Assembly: GCA_026014815.1 (NCBI GenBank)
Contig: JAOZHP010000110.1
Span: forward strand, 1,047 to 65,046
DNA: 64,000 bases
Direction: 5' to 3'
Source of the DNA: Candidatus Bathyarchaeota archaeon
GTDB lineage: Archaea; Thermoproteota; Bathyarchaeia; TCS64
This document shows positions 20,289-58,962 of the stretch, piece by piece. Positions within the stretch are counted from its first letter, which is position 1. Every line of letters begins with the position of its first letter. A program made the translations under genes and the position numbers. Under the pieces are notes generated by a model. The model searched no databases, was not told the origin of the DNA, and saw nothing but the letters and a program-made list of their open reading frames with translations.

Positions 20289-20867
20289 CTACTCTTTGTA
20301 TAAAAGATCATAATCAGTCAAGACCTCATAGATTTTTCCAACGGATTCATAGACCATTTCCGCGCTTTTAGCACCCGTGCAGACAAGCTTACCGGACGCA
20401 AAGAGAAGAAGAACAGTCTTAGGGTCCTGCATCCGGTAGATGAGGCCGGGGAACTGCTCTGGCTCGTACATCACGTTATCCAGTACATCCGCAGCGGTCT
20501 CCAAGTCGATCAATCCGTGGAGGTTCCCCGAGGCAACCATGTTCTGTATCACAATCTTTGGTTTACCCAGGATGACGATTCCATTGCTTTTTAACTCCCT
20601 GACTACCTTATTGACCGCGCTTCTCGCCTGTTTCTCTGACTTGGCGCCGGTGCACACCATTTTACCTGAGCTGAAGATTAAAGTGGCTGTCTTCGGCCTC
20701 TTGAGCCTGAAAACAAGGCCGGGGAACTGTTTCGGCCTGTACTCCACGTTCCTGAACACCTTCATGATATCAAGTAGGTTGATCTTCTGGTCGAGGCTTG
20801 CAGACGCTACGACGTTCACTATGTTGATGCCCAAGTCCCCGGGATCTATAATTGGTTCTTGTGTCAT
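20289..20867 (-). CDS. tbp: TATA-box binding protein
   Basis: 192 aa with two direct TBP repeats (QNMVAS...FPGLIYR, NVVASA...FPGLVFR). Confidence 0.95.
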   Translation of the reverse strand: MTQEPIIDPGDLGINIVNVVASASLDQKINLLDIMKVFRNVEYRPKQFPGLVFRLKRPKTATLIFSSGKMVCTGAKSEKQARSAVNKVVRELKSNGIVILGKPKIVIQNMVASGNLHGLIDLETAADVLDNVMYEPEQFPGLIYRMQDPKTVLLLFASGKLVCTGAKSAEMVYESVGKIYEVLTDYDLLYKE

Positions 20868-22458: not shown

Positions 22459-22500
22459 CTCTTTCTTTATCCATAATTTTGTCCACAATTCACTGTAGAT

Positions 22501-22527
22501 CAGCATCTGAGTGGTTTCAAGAAAAAG
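22501..22527. repeat. Repeat family A copy 1 (CAGCATCTGAGTGGTTTCAAGAAAAAG). Lies at the 3' end of a minus-strand gene; the reverse complement carries an oligo-T tract.
   Basis: Near-identical 27-nt core found 4 times: 22501, 23464, 26338 and 26822. Confidence 0.8.
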
Positions 22528-22590
22528 ATAGGAGACTCATTCAACGTATCAATATTAGAACTTTAACGTCAAAGGGCTTCTCAACGAGCA

Positions 22591-23337: not shown

Positions 23338-23463
23338 CTATTCATCCCTCCAATGAAATTCAGAACTCATCCAAGAATGGTTGAAGACGATTTAACGGTT
23401 TAGAGGGAAGAACACTCAGAACTCAAGACCTGACTGCCCCATACTCTTTTCTTCACTAGAAAC

Positions 23464-23491
23464 AGCATCTGAGTGGTTTCAAGAAAAAAGA
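23464..23491. repeat. Repeat family A copy 2
   Basis: Same core as 22501-22527. Confidence 0.8.
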
Positions 23492-23519
23492 TGGAGAATA
23501 GCTAGGGCTCTCGACTGCT

Positions 23520-23990
23520 TCATTCCTGTAACTGCTGTACCGCCATATCGGGATTGTAGAAGATCTTGAAGACCTTAACCTTCCCATCCTTGAAATCCAC
23601 GATCCAAACCGCCACCATTTCAACCCTCTTCCCAGTCGCAGGAATCCCGGCAACGTCCTCACCAGTATGAACACCAGTCCAGTGAACCTCCGCTACAACC
23701 GTATCACCCTTGGAGATCATGCGATCCACCCGATAGACGCCATCAGACCATATCGAGAAACTTCCCTCGAACAACTCACGTAATCCCTTTTTGTCCCGTT
23801 TCTCTCCTCCAACCGTTTGAACAGTCACATCATCGGTGAAGTACTCCAGCATCTCGTCAAGTTTACGAAGATCTATCAATTCCACAATCTTGCCGATGAT
23901 CTTCTCGTTCTCACTCTCAGTCAATTCTTCATCACTCTTCCCATTCTTGTTGGTATTTGTATAGCCCCCCACCTCGGGGCTAGGTTCCAC
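23520..23990 (-). CDS. SnoaL-like/ester-cyclase (NTF2-fold) protein. The N-terminal 25 codons are encoded by repeat B, so the true start is uncertain.
   Basis: NTF2-like pattern IGKIVELIDLRKLDEMLEYFTDDVTVQ. Confidence 0.55.
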   Translation of the reverse strand: MEPSPEVGGYTNTNKNGKSDEELTESENEKIIGKIVELIDLRKLDEMLEYFTDDVTVQTVGGEKRDKKGLRELFEGSFSIWSDGVYRVDRMISKGDTVVAEVHWTGVHTGEDVAGIPATGKRVEMVAVWIVDFKDGKVKVFKIFYNPDMAVQQLQE

Positions 23991-24048
23991 CAGTTAGCCA
24001 GTGGAACCTTGAATTTCATCTGATCCTAAGAATCTATAATGTTTTGGA
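23957..24048. repeat. Repeat family B copy 1. Contains an 8-bp inverted repeat, GGTTCCAC(N10)GTGGAACC, and lies at the 5' end of a minus-strand gene.
   Basis: Shared 70-90-nt element at 23957, 26226 and 26605, with compensatory variation in the stem. Confidence 0.75.
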
Positions 24049-24164
24049 TAGTTTATCTGTTCTGCGTGGTTTCGATGAAAACCGCCACTTTTCTCGCTGA
24101 GGGCGGGGAGCTCCGAGAAGTGTAGAAAAAGAAGGGAAAAAAGAGCATTGGTTGAGGGTTTAAG

Positions 24165-24974
24165 CTATTTTTTAGATTTCAACCTTGTATTTGATAATGA
24201 ATATAAACTGTTTTTGGTCTCTTTCAGGATTTCTAAGTCTAAATCCATTAGAAATGTGTCACAATCTGCCTTTGTTAATCTGCTTAACCCAATTGCTCTT
24301 GCCCAGTCAATACATTGATCAACTAACGAAGAAAGTTCCTCTCTTTCCTGTTTTATCCTCTCAAGATATTGATTTTCTAATCTCAATTGCATTTTTTCAA
24401 GAATGTCTCTTTCCGTATCTGCTAGCAAGTCTAGTTCATATTCAGATGTAAACCTACGAACATCAACAAGTCGTGCTTTATCCAGACCTCTTTCGAATAG
24501 CCAGTCACCAAATCTATCAACATAAGACGGTAACTCTGCTCGTTCTAGTTCCATTCGTGTCTGCCTTTCTTGTTCTCGTTCTTTTTCCTGCTCCATCGAG
24601 AACAGTGCCCTAGCTTTGCTAATTTTCATCTCGATTTCAAAAGGTAGTCCGAACCTTTCATCGAGTCCTTTTGATCGTAAAAACAAGTCAAACATATTAT
24701 AGGACGGTTGAATTTCTGGGTCTGGAAACTCAGTTTGTATGAAAGTTACATACTCAGAAGCTAAGTCTTGAGGGGAGATCGTCTTAAGATAATCTGGGAC
24801 TTCTCTAGGCGATATTTCAGGATAATATTCTATTTGCCCTGATTCAATATCTTCCTCTGAAGGGATAGCCGTTTGAATTTTTTGTAGAAAATTTACGACC
24901 ATGCAGTTTTCATCGAGCCACATAACACATTGATTGCCTTTACATTCTTCTTTATAGAAGGGACAAAAACTCAC
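24165..24974 (-). CDS. Hypothetical protein with an N-terminal Cys4 zinc-finger-like motif (CPFYKEECKGNQCVMWLDENC), an acidic and coiled-coil middle, and a C-terminal coiled coil. Downstream partner of the nuclease gene.
   Basis: ORF track. Overlaps the upstream gene by 4 nt (ATGA), consistent with an operon. Confidence 0.55.
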   Translation of the reverse strand: MSFCPFYKEECKGNQCVMWLDENCMVVNFLQKIQTAIPSEEDIESGQIEYYPEISPREVPDYLKTISPQDLASEYVTFIQTEFPDPEIQPSYNMFDLFLRSKGLDERFGLPFEIEMKISKARALFSMEQEKEREQERQTRMELERAELPSYVDRFGDWLFERGLDKARLVDVRRFTSEYELDLLADTERDILEKMQLRLENQYLERIKQEREELSSLVDQCIDWARAIGLSRLTKADCDTFLMDLDLEILKETKNSLYSLSNTRLKSKK

Positions 24975-25885
24975 TTTTCTGACACCCTCCCAAGTTCTTC
25001 AAAAGCATTCTCAATCTGAGCAGAAAGTTTTCTCTTGTATTCTTTGACAACAGAGGTTATCTTATCAATGTCTCGAATATTGCGAGTTTTCAGGCTTTCA
25101 GCGGTATTATTTATTGTATCAAGTGATTTGCTGAGTGTTTGAATTTCAGTAATAATATCGTTAACTTTTGTGAGTGTTTTACTCAAATCCTCAGTTGGCT
25201 GATCCTGTATCTTGAGAGTTTCCAACTCGATGAGTTTCTTAACAATATAGAAGGCAAACAAGTGACCAGAATGGTTTAACTCGCTCTCCACCACGAAAAC
25301 TGCGGTTCGGTCCAAGTTATGTTTTAAATTAATGCAACTTGAACACTTGGAAATTCTCGAACGAAGAGATACAAAGATTCCATATTTTGTGTCTCTAACT
25401 TCCATATCTCTCCAGAACTTGTCTACTTGTGAGGTAGGGACTATACCCGTGTAGTCTTTTACTTCAATTAGAACAGGCGTGCTAGAACTGGCGACAGTAG
25501 CTAGAATGTCTGAGTGTCTACCGATTCCTGAAACATCCTCGAAAGAATCATCCATAAAATGTTCTTCAAAACTTTTGAAAACAGCTTCCTCAGTAAATTC
25601 TCCTCGTTTTGCTGGGGTCATTACTGTTGGAACAATGTGCTTTAGTTGTTCTCTAATCGTATTGATGTCTTGTCTGAGTGGTGAAAAGAATGCTTCTACT
25701 GATTCTTTACTAGTACTAATTGAAGCATGTGTAACGACCATATCGCCAAGAATAATATATTTTTCAATTATACTGTCTCGCTGTTCTTCTGGAATAGTTT
25801 CAACAATTTTAATCGCTGTTGGGTCGGTCAATGTAAGCTCAAGTTTTACTTCGTTTTGGGGTTGGTTGAGAATCATTAGTTTCAA
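24971..25885 (-). CDS. PD-(D/E)xK (Mrr/Hjc-like restriction-endonuclease fold) nuclease-domain protein with a C-terminal coiled coil
   Basis: Pattern GEFTEEAV...SDILATV...PVLIEVKDY fits E...D...ExK spacing. Residues about 200-304 are heptad-rich. Confidence 0.55.
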   Translation of the reverse strand: MKLMILNQPQNEVKLELTLTDPTAIKIVETIPEEQRDSIIEKYIILGDMVVTHASISTSKESVEAFFSPLRQDINTIREQLKHIVPTVMTPAKRGEFTEEAVFKSFEEHFMDDSFEDVSGIGRHSDILATVASSSTPVLIEVKDYTGIVPTSQVDKFWRDMEVRDTKYGIFVSLRSRISKCSSCINLKHNLDRTAVFVVESELNHSGHLFAFYIVKKLIELETLKIQDQPTEDLSKTLTKVNDIITEIQTLSKSLDTINNTAESLKTRNIRDIDKITSVVKEYKRKLSAQIENAFEELGRVSEK

Positions 25886-26225
25886 TCAAGAAGTGTAACT
25901 ATTTATTGTTTTTGAAACATCCCCCCACGGGTCGGGGCACCCTATGAATTTTCAAGATAGGGGTATGCCTTCTAGGATGCTGTGCCCCAAGTTACAATGT
26001 TACCCTCCTTAGAGGGGTTCATTAGATAGGGTAGCGTCCTTGGGCGCTGTGCTTTGTAGACTCAGTTTTGCCGTCTTCAGACGGTCACATTAAATCAGCT
26101 GAAGGGGTACCAAGAAGAGGAAAAAATTTTAAATATGTAGGGCTGTTCTGTGTGACGTTACAAATTAGCTACCACGTCTAAAAATTAGCTAATTAGATAA
26201 TCGACTAATACCCCTTTCTTAGTTC

Positions 26226-26310
26226 TCCCCACTTTGGAGCTAGGGCTCCACCAGTTAGCCAGTAGAACCTTGAGTGACATCTTATCCTTTACGTCTATAA
26301 CGTTTTGGAC
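26226..26310. repeat. Repeat family B copy 2
   Basis: Homologous to 23957-24048, including the TCTATAAYGTTTTGGA tail. Confidence 0.75.
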
Positions 26311-26337
26311 GTTCAAAGATGAATTCAAACTAGAAAA

Positions 26338-26363
26338 AGCATCTGAGTGGACTCAAGAAAAAG
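26338..26363. repeat. Repeat family A copy 3 (variant GGACTC for GGTTTC)
   Basis: Same core. Confidence 0.75.
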
Positions 26364-26396
26364 AGGGGGAATCAGCTAGTTCGGTTTTTCGGATGA

Positions 26397-26604: not shown

Positions 26605-26672
26605 TTGGTAATTGTATAGCTCCCAACTCCGGAGCTAGGACTCCACCAGCTAACCAGCAGAACCTTGAGTGT
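26605..26672. repeat. Repeat family B copy 3 (acts as the 5' leader of the DUF1059 gene)
   Basis: Homologous to the other B copies. An in-frame TGA upstream of the ATG shows it is untranslated here. Confidence 0.7.
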
Positions 26673-26821
26673 CAATAGACTCAAATAATATTTAACAACT
26701 TGTAAAGGATTTAATGATTTTATTTTCTTATTGTATATAATATTCGTGAAATCCAGCGTTTTGATAACGAGCTTCGACAATATTCAAATAACTATCTCCT
26801 CGACTTTTATCCTACTAAATT

Positions 26822-26850
26822 CAGCATCTGAGTGGTTTCAAGAAAAAAAG
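26822..26850. repeat. Repeat family A copy 4, followed by a tRNA T-arm-like fragment (GGGAGGGACTCGAACCC, 26850-26867)
   Basis: Same core. The adjacent segment is the reverse complement of a GGGTTCGAGTCCC T-arm. Confidence 0.7.
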
Positions 26851-26932
26851 GGAGGGACTCGAACCCTACTATATGTGGTGATATCACCCGATATCTCCTT
26901 TTTTTATATATCGTATGTAGGACCATGAAGAA

Positions 26933-26993
26933 TTTTTTATCTCAATATGACAAATTACTTGAAGCCAAAAAAAATATGGTGCAGGGGGTGGGA
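26933..26993. repeat. Distal att-like direct repeat: a copy of the 3' end of tRNA-Leu(CAG) plus about 40 nt of its 3' flank
   Basis: TTTTTATCTCAATATGACAAATTACTTGAAGCCAAAAAAAATATGGTGCAGGGGGTGGGA here, against TTTTTTCTCAATATTACAGGTTACTTGAAGCGAAAATAATGGTGCGGAGGGTGGGA at 29545-29605. Confidence 0.7.
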
Positions 26994-27034
26994 TGCCCAC
27001 ACAAAAATACTAGTAAAAACCGTGTGTGAGCATA

Positions 27035-27568
27035 TTATAATGGGAAGAGTTCTCTTTCTAATTCGTTCATCTTCTCCCTGAATCGCACATTAAAATCGCT
27101 AACCAATTCGAGATACGTCGCAAACCACGCCTCAAATACTATAACAACTTCATGAAGCCGCTTTGCCTCGTCACTATTTTTTTCTTCATCAGAGAGATTG
27201 TTCCACTCATCAAGAATTGATTCAATAACATCTAGCTTGCCAGTGACAAATCGTTCAGATATGTCTACGGTCCTCTTGAATTCGTCAAAGAAGGATTTTG
27301 CTCGTTCACCATACAACTGGGTACGGGAGCCTGGTTTAGACTCTTTTCTGATCAAGCCCCGTTGCTCTAAATTTGATAAATACCTTGATATTTGTGATCT
27401 TGAGTATCCGGTTTTTTCTGAGATCTTTTCTTGAGTAAGTGGTTCAGGAGATAATACGATCATAGAGTAGATACAGGCTATCGTTGGCTCGGTTCCCCTG
27501 AATCTGACTATGTCCTCAAGAACCCCTAGGAACGCCTCATGTAGTTTTTCGTACCCGTTGTTTGTCAT
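27035..27568 (-). CDS. Winged-helix (MarR/TrmB-like) transcriptional regulator
   Basis: HTH segment ISEKTGYSRSQISRYLSNLEQRGLIRK. Confidence 0.6.
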   Translation of the reverse strand: MTNNGYEKLHEAFLGVLEDIVRFRGTEPTIACIYSMIVLSPEPLTQEKISEKTGYSRSQISRYLSNLEQRGLIRKESKPGSRTQLYGERAKSFFDEFKRTVDISERFVTGKLDVIESILDEWNNLSDEEKNSDEAKRLHEVVIVFEAWFATYLELVSDFNVRFREKMNELERELFPL

Positions 27569-27682
27569 TGTTATCTTCTCTTATTGTTTTATAGAAAGTT
27601 CCATAGTGCTACACTAGAAAAGTGAGGATATTATAGTTACTTTCTCTACCATATATAATGTAAAACCTATTTGAAAGCTTTG

Positions 27683-28606
27683 TTATTCTTTCTTTAATTC
27701 TTTTCTCTCTATTTTATTTAATATAACGCCACATGATTTACACTTATAATCAACATCATAAACCTTCGAAACTACATCATTACTTTCATCTTCTTTAATT
27801 AATTTTGATTCAAAATATTCCAAAGACCCAATATTATTACAAACCTCACATCTAGTTCTTTCACTTATTTCTAATATAGACAATGGAATTAACCCCAAAA
27901 TAATTGATATACCCAAATATGTAGGATATCCTGTTAATATATCTCTATTGAAATAAATGGCATAAAAAATAGGGGTTTCAAATAATACAAATAAAACCAC
28001 CATTATAATTTTTTCTTTTATTAGCGGAGTTGTTTGATTATCATATACATATTGTGAATATTTTTCAATTAAACTACTCACAACATTAAACCATGAAGAC
28101 CCCTGCGGAAATTCATCTATTGATAGTGGCGAATTTGAAGTAATATCCTGAATAAATGTAACTTTTGATACCATATCAAACCATTGATCTCTGTGTTTTT
28201 TTAATTCTGAAGGAGTGTATTTTCTTCCTTTGGGATGATTTGGGTTATATGAACCCACATCGGCATGACAATCAAAACAGAGAGGAATCCCATTATCCTC
28301 ATCGTTTCCTCCATCAGGTTCTATATGATGAATTTCGATTTTTGTACCCTTGAAAGTTCTACAAAGACAACAACGCCTATTACTTTTTACTAATAAAGAT
28401 TCAGCTACAATTGGTGGAAATGGTTTAGGAGGCATTGAAATTACCTTTAATTTTAGTATTATTTTAGGGTTGTTAAGAATTTGGACAGATTTTGTAAGGA
28501 CCATTGCCCCCCCCGCTAATTTCTTCGGGTGAAACTCAGAAGGTGGGGGGGCTGCGAAATTAATTATACTTGTATGTGTAACTGAAAGTGATATTGATGG
28601 AGCCAA
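27683..28606 (-). CDS. HNH endonuclease domain fused to two TM helices and a C-terminal zinc ribbon. True start is probably the Met near 28435.
   Basis: HNH motif CCLCRTF...IEIHHIEPDGGNDEDNGIPLCFDCH. Hydrophobic helices IIMVVLFVLF and GISIILGLIPL. C-terminal CEVCN...CKSCG. Confidence 0.55.
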   Translation of the reverse strand: MAPSISLSVTHTSIINFAAPPPSEFHPKKLAGGAMVLTKSVQILNNPKIILKLKVISMPPKPFPPIVAESLLVKSNRRCCLCRTFKGTKIEIHHIEPDGGNDEDNGIPLCFDCHADVGSYNPNHPKGRKYTPSELKKHRDQWFDMVSKVTFIQDITSNSPLSIDEFPQGSSWFNVVSSLIEKYSQYVYDNQTTPLIKEKIIMVVLFVLFETPIFYAIYFNRDILTGYPTYLGISIILGLIPLSILEISERTRCEVCNNIGSLEYFESKLIKEDESNDVVSKVYDVDYKCKSCGVILNKIERKELKKE

Positions 28607-28896
28607 ATCTAAGAGGGAGAGTCGAAGCGTTTCTTGATAGATTATTAACTGATGAAATATTTTCTAATGTAATGCGAGGAATTACTACACTTAAAAACGA
28701 GTGGATGTTTGAGTCAATTGATAGCTTCTATTTAGGAGTAATATTCGGATTAACAACAGAATATATCTTACGTGATTATTCTGACCAAGGAAAAGATATC
28801 GAAGACTGGGAGAAGTTATCAAATGAAACAGTCTCTGTTCTTACTAGAAGATTATCAGAGATTAGAAGACAATTCGAACTACACATCAATAAGTAA
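28588..28896 (+). CDS. Hypothetical protein
   Basis: ORF track only. Confidence 0.3.
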   Translation: MILMEPNLRGRVEAFLDRLLTDEIFSNVMRGITTLKNEWMFESIDSFYLGVIFGLTTEYILRDYSDQGKDIEDWEKLSNETVSVLTRRLSEIRRQFELHINK

Positions 28897-29009
28897 TAAT
28901 AACACCATACTTTAACATCCAAAGCCAACATTCAATTATTTTTTAAATCTGGCAAACCCTCTTAGAAGTTTTACATAAAAAGTTTTACGAAATAAATTCT
29001 ATGAATAAA

Positions 29010-29294
29010 TTATTTGATTTTAACATTTTTCATGTTTCTCAGTTCATCAGCAAATCCATCTATTTGTTCAATTATCTTCTCAATATATTCTCTGATGTAA
29101 TCTATTCCCTGAATAGGCGGAAGTTCATCAACTGTCTCGATTGTAAACGAAAACTTCCCTGACTCAATGAGAGCGTCAATCTCAGCAGCTCTTTCTGGAT
29201 CAATATACGTTAGTTCATCATAAGCTAATTTAAGTGATTCAAGAGAAATATCTACTAACCTAGATAATCTCTCAATCAAATGGTTCTCAGTCAT
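29010..29294 (-). CDS. Hypothetical acidic protein
   Basis: ORF track only. Confidence 0.3.
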   Translation of the reverse strand: MTENHLIERLSRLVDISLESLKLAYDELTYIDPERAAEIDALIESGKFSFTIETVDELPPIQGIDYIREYIEKIIEQIDGFADELRNMKNVKIK

Positions 29295-29544
29295 CTCATT
29301 TCCTCTTTCTAACTATCTTGCAATCAGCATAGTCTGATACATATTCATATCTTTTACTTAATGCATTTATGTAATCATTCAAATCGTATATACCTTAACC
29401 AGATAATTATCATCAGGCTCCTCATCCAATAAATGAATGTAAACTATAGTATTTTGGGTATTGACATGTTAACCTACTATTTCGCTACCAGAGAACGGGT
29501 AGCTCTTTTTTTTCAAGATTCCCAGATACAAAGTACAAAAAATA

Positions 29545-29605
29545 TTTTTTTCTCAATATTACAGGTTACTTGAAGCGAAAATAATGGTGCGGAGGGTGGG
29601 ACTCG
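29545..29605. repeat. Proximal att-like direct repeat (the 3' end of tRNA-Leu plus its flank)
   Basis: See 26933-26993. Confidence 0.7.
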
Positions 29606-29670
29606 AACCCACGAAGGACTAGTCCATCAGGACCTGAACCTGACCCCTTTGACCACTTGGGAACCCCCGC
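29585..29670 (-). tRNA. tRNA-Leu (anticodon CAG), encoded CCA, long variable arm
   Basis: Hand-folded cloverleaf GCGGGGG/CCUCCGC acceptor, anticodon loop UUCAGGU, variable stem GGAC/GUCC, T-arm GUGGGUUCGAGUCCCAC. Confidence 0.9.
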
Positions 29671-32977: not shown

Positions 32978-33094
32978 TGGTCCCGCCCGCAGGAGTTGAA
33001 CCTGCAACCCTCCGGTGTCTGCTCATGGTCTGATTGCCACTGCCCCGCGGGGCGATGACTACAGCCGGATGCTCTGCCATTGAGCTAGGGCGGG
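32978..33094 (-). tRNA. tRNA-Tyr (anticodon GUA) with a 42-nt intron after position 37, a C1-G72 pair, and encoded CCA
   Basis: Hand fold: acceptor CCCGCCC/GGGCGGG, D-arm GCUCAAUGGCAGAGC, anticodon stem UCCGG/CCGGA, loop CUGUAG[intron]A, T-arm GCAGGUUCAACUCCUGC, discriminator A. Confidence 0.8.
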
Positions 33095-58820: not shown

Positions 58821-58891
58821 CCTCCTGGGGTGTAATGGTAGCACAACTGGCCGTGGACCAGTTAGAGTGGGTTCGATCCCCACCAATTTGA
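58821..58891 (+). tRNA. tRNA-like gene 1. D-arm GUGU/GCAC, anticodon stem ACUGG/CCAGU with loop CCGUGGA (GUG, His-like), T-arm GUGGGUUCGAUCCCCAC. The acceptor stem was not closed by hand folding.
   Basis: Canonical GGTTCGATCC T-loop and cloverleaf arms read directly from the sequence. Confidence 0.35.
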
Positions 58892-58962
58892 GCAGTGATA
58901 GCTTAATGGGAAAGCGCCGAGTTGAGTTCTCGGTGTCGGGGGTTCGATTCCCCCTCACTTTT
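58892..58962 (+). tRNA. tRNA-like gene 2. Acceptor GCAGUGA/UCACUUU with one mismatch, D-arm GCUU/AAGC, anticodon stem CCGAG/CUCGG with loop UUGAGUU (GAG), T-arm GGGGGUUCGAUUCCCCC.
   Basis: Hand fold. The anticodon and variable-arm type are inconsistent (GAG reads Leu but the variable arm is short), so identity is unresolved. Confidence 0.35.

Follow-up and report, generated by a model that had tools for sequence, protein, structure and literature searches.

A candidate restriction-like defence module of Bathyarchaeia that pairs a predicted Mrr-type nuclease with a Cys4 protein

Among the closest known systems to the gene pair described here are the Mrr restriction endonucleases, whose Mrr_cat domain family (PF04471) has AF1548 (PDB 1y88) as its structural representative. 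DUF2130 (PF09903) and RmuC proteins, found mostly in bacteria and lacking a Cys4 partner, carry a PD-(D/E)xK domain and an extended helical or coiled-coil segment on a single polypeptide; the coiled coil of RmuC lies N-terminal to its nuclease domain. In Lamassu (LmuA/LmuB) and Rad50-Mre11, a nuclease is encoded alongside a helical partner, and the cysteines of Rad50 hooks coordinate metal. Furthermore, the view that restriction genes can behave as small, selfish and mobile units is part of the restriction-modification literature. In a survey of PD-(D/E)xK proteins, the function of DUF2130 was given as unknown (PMC3424549).

The pair analysed here lies in a 64,000-nt stretch of a Candidatus Bathyarchaeota MAG (hereafter the window). 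Both ORFs were found where an earlier reading of the sequence alone (the sequence-only reading) had placed them, and they are 100% identical to NWE89_12600 (nuclease) and NWE89_12595 (partner). The nuclease gene (24971..25885, minus strand) is a maximal ORF of 304 aa from a TTG; the start is likely the ATG at 25876, judging from homologues, which gives 301 aa, and the product is 100% identical to P0001 (301 aa). The partner gene (24165..24974, minus strand) encodes 269 aa from a GTG start. The two genes overlap by 4 nt (24971..24974, minus strand), as had been noted, although the sequence is GTGA, combining the nuclease stop TGA with the partner start GTG, and not the ATGA originally read; ATGA is found at the corresponding overlap in one homologous locus (L005). 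At most loci, the partner likewise starts at or overlaps the nuclease stop. The 4-nt GTGA overlap implies translational coupling of the nuclease and partner. The probable promoter of the two genes is a TATA-like box (AATAAATAG; 25899..25907, minus strand), which precedes the ATG at 25876 by about 27 nt; the segment with this proximal box is common to the window and its closest relative, L020, and TATA-like boxes are found upstream of the nuclease in most homologues. A structured non-coding leader had also been proposed here. Such a leader, or a riboswitch, was rejected, since the region folded no better than shuffled sequence (z = −0.49), matched no Rfam family and was not conserved 5′ of any homologue. 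No such leader is needed, because the proximal TATA-like box suffices to explain expression.

The nuclease had 276 homologues at E ≤ 1e-3; the best 120 of these were mostly ca. 300 aa long, and all matches among these 120 were at least 50% identical. Across 44 sequences, 44 of the 304 residues were invariant. The core (residues 99–203; 25277..25591, minus strand) carries the invariant motif HFxDDxF (H109–F115) together with D126, E141 and K143, whose codons (25508–25510, 25463–25465 and 25457–25459, respectively) lie within 25457..25510 on the minus strand. The E…D…E-V-K pattern that had been recognised in this protein (FTEEAV, SDILATV and LIEVKDY) was borne out for the last three positions, which were invariant in 44/44 homologues and kept in 22/22 homologues with an absent or decayed partner, whereas the first acidic position (E99/E100) was only partially conserved. 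An AF2 model placed an alpha/beta core at residues 99–203 and a long helix at residues 207–303. The nuclease has a PD-(D/E)xK fold with a restriction-endonuclease-like alpha/beta core, as had been suggested. Hjc and NucS matches were generic fold matches and ranked below those to restriction-type nucleases.

The sequence-only reading had recognised no characterised family for the nuclease, whose domain probably belongs to Mrr_cat. The window protein scored 18.5 bits (E = 0.0022) against Mrr_cat, below the Pfam gathering threshold of 21 bits, but other family members scored 22.4–33.4 bits, and PF04471 is among the precomputed matches of several close homologues; it is through these relatives that the nuclease domain is most plausibly placed in Mrr_cat. 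Unlike Mrr, the nuclease has no Mrr_N winged-helix reader, and neither protein of the pair contained Mrr_N, SRA or another modified-base reader domain in Pfam and NCBIfam searches. A conserved N-terminal helical region precedes the core, a tail of ca. 95 residues predicted to form a coiled coil follows it, and the enzyme has a dedicated Cys4 protein as its partner. The N-terminal region (residues ca. 12–88; 25622..25852, minus strand) contains AF2 helices at residues 22–30, 36–55 and 60–88, the last being heptad-patterned (observed score reached by 2 of 2000 shuffles). The C-terminal region (residues 207–303; 24977..25267, minus strand) comprises modelled helices at 207–228 and 233–303. Its reported heptad-rich character was confirmed, since no more than 7 of 2000 shuffles scored as high as residues 233–303, and from the model this region is probably a coiled-coil oligomerisation tail. 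The tail is also present in clades without a partner and in distant relatives. The arrangement is similar to that in DUF2130 and RmuC, except that the main coiled coil lies C-terminal to the nuclease domain, unlike that of RmuC. Two distant relatives gave weak but long alignments to DUF2130 (21.3 and 15.9 bits; gathering threshold, 26.7), and the window nuclease gave no match. In distant relatives of 400–500 aa, no fusion to a partner-like module was found, the domain that extends them C-terminally being unrelated. Sequence searches of the PDB returned no solved-structure relatives of the nuclease, the partner or the Cys4 peptide.

The partner begins with a Cys4 knot (24903..24965, minus strand) of the form C4-x6-C11-x4-C16-x7-C24, with the consensus FCPFxxxxCxGNxCxMWxxxxC. 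In agreement with the zinc-finger-like element read previously, all four cysteines, as well as P5, were invariant in 49/49 unique homologues, and the knot presumably binds metal; AF2 predicted a beta-hairpin at residues 15–28 with low confidence. The public annotation of the partner starts at M18 and thereby loses C4, C11 and C16. At other loci too, the Cys4 N-terminus was encoded upstream of mis-called starts. The acidic segment expected after the knot is a fast-evolving, disordered linker (residues ca. 29–60; 24795..24890, minus strand; pLDDT < 50 at residues 28–53). Net charges ranged from −3 to −12 among sampled linkers and averaged −8 for whole partners; this strong acidity argues against a simple DNA-binding role. 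The C-terminal part contains two copies of a helical module. Copy 2 (residues 205–269; 24168..24362, minus strand) is universal in the family, was recovered by the unit HMM with an i-E of 4e-31, was modelled with a pLDDT of > 90, and carries the conserved motif ELPSLV..C.DWA and an LKSKK tail. Copy 1 (residues 139–201; 24372..24560, minus strand) is an extra copy restricted to the long-form clade; an HMM for the C-terminal unit of short-form partners recognises it (i-E 3e-21), and it is 30% identical to copy 2 (BLASTP, E = 2e-8). The long form was limited to relatives with nucleases at least 62% identical.

The long coiled coils ascribed to the partner were not recovered: the heptad scores of its long helices were reached by 1125 and 721 of 2000 shuffles. 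By composition, these are E/R/K-rich charged helices and not evident coiled coils. The related suggestion of an SMC-like or Zn-hook protein also found no support, as the partner showed no ATPase, no PADLOC match, no heptad pattern, no structural neighbour and no match to a DNA-binding fold. Unlike SMC, Rad50 and LmuB proteins, it has neither an ATPase head nor a significant match to the PADLOC LmuB model, and its knot is N-terminal with C-x6-C-x4-C-x7-C spacing, whereas Rad50-type proteins have a CxxC hook at the coiled-coil apex. The partner family comprised only 57 clusters and had no distant relatives.

The two genes were closely associated. Of 95 informative loci, 78 had the partner immediately 3′ of the nuclease, and no partner was found without a nuclease; all three partner matches that otherwise appeared unlinked followed a nuclease-sized gene of ca. 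300 aa, two of these with a weak Mrr_cat match. Distance matrices of the two proteins were correlated (r = 0.85, Mantel p ≤ 0.001). Nucleases with intact catalytic residues were retained in at least six lineages without a partner. They were also retained in three lineages whose partner is disrupted by premature stops or frameshifts, including one with 97% identity to a locus where both genes are intact, which makes at least nine independent cases. In alternative clades, an N-terminal CxxC…CxxH zinc finger was fused to the nuclease or a downstream HNH protein replaced the partner.

As had been noted, the pair lies in a low-GC island (ca. 21.0–29.6 kb; GC 0.385 versus 0.497 outside) adjoining a tRNA-Leu (29585–29670). 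Its cassette is indeed framed by repeats, with D2 (26244–26309, containing a hairpin) and D1 (26329–26379) at the upstream boundary (26244..26379), and a D1-like copy (24061–24078) and D2 (23983–24048) at the downstream boundary (23983..24078). Both repeats were confined to the island of the window and absent from all other loci of the family. The other nuclease genes mentioned for the island are represented by a borderline HNH protein (27683–28606). The island contained no methyltransferase, and no integrase was found among the window ORFs scanned or read at 12–40 kb and 55.5–61 kb. An integron or CALIN cassette array was rejected because of this lack of an integrase and because D1 and D2 have no attC cores, the latter in a weak test made by eye for R″/R′ cores (RYYYAAC/GTTRRRY).

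Only 14 of 185,579 species genomes contained the family, in Bathyarchaeia, Nitrososphaerales and Chloroflexota bins together with four distant relatives (26%–30% identity); a look-up of the partner added one more pair, from a Methanomethylicaceae MAG. The module was also widespread in sediment metagenomes. GC was lower in the pair than in its flanks at 22 of 24 loci, and at L021 (0.35 versus 0.67) and L034 (0.29 versus 0.61) the low-GC block was exactly the pair, defining a minimal transferred unit of 1.7–2.2 kb. These boundaries showed no terminal repeats or target duplication, only short matches at chance level, and insertion sites were not conserved. The pair is thus, on compositional and phyletic grounds, horizontally mobile and patchy rather than housekeeping in its distribution. 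Like selfish restriction units, it forms a minimal nuclease unit inserted among host genes, sharply delimited in composition and patchily distributed across the phylogeny; unlike them, it lacks a cognate methyltransferase, and the product of its second gene is a non-enzymatic Cys4 protein. A viral or plasmid origin was rejected, as no relatives were found in IMG/VR contigs, INPHARED phages or PLSDB plasmids; the sole PHROG match was marginal (E ca. 1e-3, family labelled RusA-like resolvase).

The neighbourhoods examined agreed with the expectation of a conserved operon that co-occurs widely, and its neighbours were mostly restriction-modification, Abi, TIR, OLD and integrase genes. More specifically, they encoded type IIG enzymes, TIR, OLD, NACHT, AbiE, C5 and N4/N6 methylases and PLD proteins. 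A census of 283 neighbouring ORFs in 37 loci, given as raw counts without a matched background control, yielded 12 matches to methylase models (mad2) in addition to type IIG, AriA, PD-T4-6, DrmC and AbiEi, and the commonest Pfam neighbours were Mrr_cat, Eco57I, N6_N4_Mtase, N6_Mtase, integrase, AAA_21, HNH, NA-iREase1 and TIR_2. Some loci (L021 and L008) had housekeeping neighbours only. Neither the nuclease nor the partner matched any model of PADLOC-DB v2, and distant relatives gave only weak matches to the LmuB, LeoBC and ZorA models; our literature search returned no paper joining Mrr_cat, coiled-coil and defence. This gene context makes the pair a candidate for a role in defence. The core of the sequence-only reading withstood each computational check that it had called for: the nuclease was not assigned to Hjc or NucS alongside conserved housekeeping neighbours, and the two genes recur together at other loci.

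We consider the pair to be, with a probability of roughly one half, a self-contained and horizontally mobile module that combines an Mrr-type endonuclease effector with a dedicated accessory subunit, most likely for restriction-like defence or genetic conflict. The nuclease would oligomerise through its heptad-patterned helices (residues 60–88 and 233–303) and might cut DNA at D126, E141 and K143, while the start/stop overlap would supply the partner in a fixed ratio. Being found only beside the nuclease, co-diverging with it and made in this ratio, the partner therefore most likely binds it. The Cys4 knot, which the acidic linker and the charged helices connect to one helical module or two, could serve as an adaptor for regulation or sensing; the partner would gate or direct the nuclease without joining in catalysis. 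This role is modular, and other clades use the fused finger, the HNH protein or neither. We infer physical interaction, DNA cleavage and defence for the pair. Counting against a defence function, conservation was unusually high for a defence gene, and no sensor, ATPase or DNA-recognition domain was recognisable in either protein. More tentatively, the pair might be a previously unrecognised, archaea-centred immune module in which the Cys4 knot senses an invader cue (possibly foreign DNA ends, a viral protein or a shift in redox or metal state) and releases or targets the oligomeric Mrr-type nuclease. The partner would then represent a new fold family, its role being filled in sister clades by the fused zinc finger or the HNH protein.

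Type IV enzymes typically sit beside other restriction-modification systems, as this module often does. A modification-dependent, Mrr-like Type IV enzyme would need no cognate methylase, and its partner would be a specificity or recognition subunit; the Mrr_cat-type domain and the lack of a methyltransferase in the island and directly beside the pair at most loci are consistent with this. Such an enzyme is nevertheless unlikely, given that no modified-base reader was detected, that the acidic partner matches no DNA-binding fold, and that a C5 methylase is divergently transcribed right beside the nuclease at L022-24, an arrangement more like classical Type II systems. The acidity of the partner and its disordered linker would fit an antitoxin or DNA mimic that restrains a nuclease toxin in an addiction or selfish module, stabilising the island or spreading itself. 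The tight translational coupling and the small size of the transferred unit point in the same direction, and archaeal cassette arrays commonly carry toxin-antitoxin and restriction genes (PMC9668308). However, the partner has been lost or has decayed while the nuclease stayed catalytically intact, so it is not an essential antitoxin, and its gene lies downstream rather than upstream of the nuclease; we regard this explanation as improbable.

The transfer of just the pair at L021 and L034 and the repeat-framed cassette of the window, located in a tRNA-adjacent array with no integrase seen, could instead indicate a homing-endonuclease-like or recombination-initiating nuclease that inserts its own cassette, with defence being incidental. 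Yet the clean boundaries at L021 and L034, the restriction of the framing repeats to the window and the variable insertion sites make this the least probable of the explanations considered. A housekeeping repair or recombination nuclease (RmuC/DUF2130-, Hjc- or NucS-like) with a structural cofactor is hardly more convincing. Housekeeping-only surroundings occur, but the L021 example is a low-GC insertion with sharp edges in a genome of 67% GC. In addition, the family is rare among species genomes, the matches to Hjc and NucS reflect only the general fold, and no housekeeping neighbour is conserved across the varying neighbourhoods.

In uncultured archaea such as Bathyarchaeia, defence systems are for the most part predicted from models carried over from bacteria. 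The module described here is invisible to such models, with no PADLOC match, yet repeatedly occurs among restriction, Abi, TIR and OLD genes, and it is a candidate restriction-like defence module with a new accessory subunit. Our analysis also corrects the public annotation of the partner, restoring three of its four cysteines. The long and short partners, fused zinc finger, HNH partner and solo nucleases provide a comparative series for studying the role of the accessory subunit. If the pair is a defence system, it would contribute a new protein family, marked by an invariant C-x6-C-x4-C-x7-C knot, and would represent an archaeal lineage-specific design, in which an Mrr-type effector is combined with a small, exchangeable metal-binding adaptor.

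The nuclease and partner genes are best explained as a mobile module built around a restriction-like nuclease, with an accessory subunit that is both dedicated and exchangeable. Both minus-strand ORFs described in the sequence-only reading (nuclease, 24971–25885; partner, 24165–24974) were present in an ORF check and were 100% identical to NWE89_12600 and NWE89_12595, respectively, of a Candidatus Bathyarchaeota MAG. The nuclease ORF has a TTG at its 5′ end (25885); its homologues are about 300 aa long, and translation probably begins at the ATG at 25876. For the partner, the start codon is the GTG at 24974, and therefore its overlap with the nuclease stop reads GTGA rather than the ATGA given previously. 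The public annotation of the partner (NWE89_12595, 252 aa) begins at M18, leaving out 24923–24974 and costing the protein three of its four invariant cysteines (C4, C11 and C16). Because the Cys-rich peptide upstream of M18 is conserved at the protein level, also where gene callers overlooked it, the longer ORF is the correct version. The same mis-call was found in several metagenomic gene calls, such as at the homologous locus L005.

The window nuclease matched the Pfam family Mrr_cat (PF04471) with 18.5 bits, below the 21-bit cut-off, and had no match in PADLOC or NCBIfam. Across 44 aligned homologues, D126, E141 and K143 were invariant, as were an HFxDDxF motif and a KFWxD helix. The catalytic pattern proposed earlier (E...D...E-V-K) stands for these three residues, whereas its first glutamate was only partly conserved. 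The AlphaFold model (mean pLDDT 76, core 80–91) consists of N-terminal helices (residues 22–88), a PD-(D/E)xK-type alpha/beta core (99–203) and a long C-terminal helix (207–303). Significant heptad periodicity was detected at residues 60–88 and 233–303, the latter bearing out the heptad-rich tail predicted behind the core. The protein would be expected to cleave DNA. A profile search against 1.84 billion representatives retrieved 1353 clusters at E ≤ 1e-3, many of them 400–500 aa long and aligned over the greater part of the profile, N-terminal helices and C-terminal helix included. Five of 10 sampled representatives passed the Mrr_cat threshold, and two matched DUF2130 weakly. Many of the 400–500-aa relatives (P0168–P0204 and others) carried an extra conserved C-terminal domain of ca. 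130 residues (motif ...GTKTRLDL...), which was unrelated to the partner and lacked annotation, and one relative (P0190) had a SAP DNA-binding domain at its C-terminal end.

The partner matched no family in Pfam, NCBIfam, PADLOC or PHROGs. Its N-terminal cysteines C4, C11, C16 and C24 were invariant in all 49 unique homologues (consensus FCPFxxxxCxGNxCxMWxxxxC). The structure model (mean pLDDT 80) runs from a low-confidence beta-hairpin through a disordered acidic linker into confidently predicted helices, and the protein is strongly acidic (mean net charge −8). Residues 139–201 and 205–269 represent a tandem duplication of one module of ca. 65 residues (HMM i-E 3e-21 and 4e-31); most homologues, ca. 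200 aa long, have a single copy, and the two-copy form occurred only in the clade closest to the window. Long coiled coils had been suggested for this protein, but its long helices are rich in E, R and K and show no heptad-like pattern, leaving that suggestion unsupported. The Cys4 knot might have a regulatory or sensing role, and the partner probably forms a complex with the nuclease.

The two-gene operon was conserved across loci gathered from genomes, metagenomes and exact-protein look-ups. Of 95 informative loci that carried a close homologue of the nuclease, 78 had the partner immediately downstream on the same strand; some of these loci are redundant copies of one another. A partner profile search yielded only 57 clusters, all of 184–273 aa; the three with no previous nuclease link each directly followed a nuclease-sized gene (ca. 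300 aa), and two of these three genes matched Mrr_cat weakly. The two proteins co-diverged, with correlated pairwise distances (r = 0.85, Mantel p ≤ 0.001, 49 unique pairs), and the partner evolved faster than the nuclease (mean distance 0.52 vs. 0.34). Their dependence is one-sided. The partner was absent at 17 loci and carried a premature stop or frameshift at five, and all 22 nucleases concerned, in many separate lineages, kept their catalytic residues. In a partner-less sister clade (loci L012, L013 and L100–L104; e.g., L013:9791–10882), the nuclease had an N-terminal extension of 60–100 residues with a CxxC...CxxH motif (YYCxxCKQxIS...PLCxxHQ), which is possibly a functional analogue of the Cys4 knot within the same polypeptide. 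In another clade, the partner was replaced by a protein of 369 aa with a C-terminal HNH domain (L003:8897–10006, L078:2223–3344), surrounded at L003 by three TIR-domain genes (one an Mrr_cat fusion), an OLD-family ATPase and an HD protein. At other loci, the downstream gene encoded an RNase_H_2 exonuclease, a second Mrr_cat protein, a PIN protein or a kinase.

The distribution of the family was patchy, with only 14 loci in one-genome-per-species collections (185,579 species). Ten close relatives came from Bathyarchaeia, Nitrososphaerales and two Chloroflexota bins; the other four, in MAGs of Thiomargarita, Methanosuratincola, Poseidoniales and Methanobacteriota, were distant (26%–30% identity). 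A partner look-up added a pair in a Methanomethylicaceae MAG. The family was not found on any of the viral contigs, phages or plasmids searched. Close homologues with 58% and 49% identity lay on contigs binned as Chloroflexia (L010; CAVWGE010000004.1, 251 kb), where the partner is split into two ORFs, and Dehalococcoidales (L014); they may reflect either archaea-to-bacteria transfer or mis-binning. The pair was compositionally foreign: in 22 of the 24 long loci, its GC was lower than in the flanking DNA. At L021:6890–8650 and L034:4900–7100, a block with a GC of ca. 0.3–0.38 lay between host genes with a GC of 0.6–0.7, and no terminal repeats were found at these sharp boundaries. Because this block holds only the nuclease and partner genes, the transferred unit is the pair with its own promoter.

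The low-GC island recognised previously was evident in the window (GC 0.385 at 21.0–29.6 kb vs. 0.497 elsewhere), between the TATA-binding protein gene (20289–20867) and tRNA-Leu plus glycine-cleavage genes; the flanking regions that were inspected showed no integrase. As the sequence-only reading had indicated, local repeats separate the island genes and bound the nuclease–partner cassette. Repeat D1 has four to five copies (22493–22543, 23455–23505, 24061–24078, 26329–26379 and 26814–26864), and D2, with a perfect internal 8-bp hairpin, has three (23983–24048, 26244–26309 and 26639–26704). They follow each island gene or cassette (alpha/beta hydrolase, SnoaL protein, nuclease pair and DUF1059 protein), lack attC core motifs and were absent from the rest of the window and from the other loci. 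The supposed structured leader upstream of the nuclease consists of these repeats and a spacer, folded no better than shuffled sequences and was not conserved. A ca. 65-nt copy of the tRNA-Leu(CAG) 3′ end and downstream flank (about 26929–26995, 86% identical to 29540–29612), located 2.6 kb from the tRNA gene, looks like an attL/attR-type duplication around a putative integrated element (26996–29584) that contains a MarR/TrmB-type wHTH gene, an HNH/transmembrane gene and two small ORFs without an integrase. Rfam additionally detected a tRNA missed by ARAGORN (32981–33094, minus strand), whose 114-nt length suggests an intron, and a partial tRNA-like match (58826–58885, plus strand) directly upstream of a second tRNA-Leu, tRNA-Leu(GAG) (58892–58962, plus strand). 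The latter lies in another lower-GC stretch (56–60 kb, GC 0.41–0.44), among whose ORFs no integrase was seen.

Neighbours across loci included MmeI/Eco57I-type enzymes, C5 and N4/N6 methylases, AbiEi/AbiEii, three TIR proteins, OLD-family ATPases, NACHT proteins, PLD nucleases and integrases. In a PADLOC and Pfam census of 283 ORFs from 37 non-redundant loci, the commonest families, as raw frequencies without a matched background, were methyltransferases, type IIG enzymes, Mrr_cat, HNH, integrases, AAA_21, NA-iREase1 and TIR. A Type IV restriction enzyme would be compatible with the pair, although neither protein has a reader domain. A toxin–antitoxin function is made less likely by the partner having been lost repeatedly while the nuclease stayed intact, and a housekeeping role of the nuclease by its distribution and sharp insertions. 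The module was absent from PADLOC and its description was not found in the literature searched; therefore, we rated it as an effector of the Mrr family whose partner belongs to a novel family. Such a mobile module would most likely be used in defence or genetic conflict.
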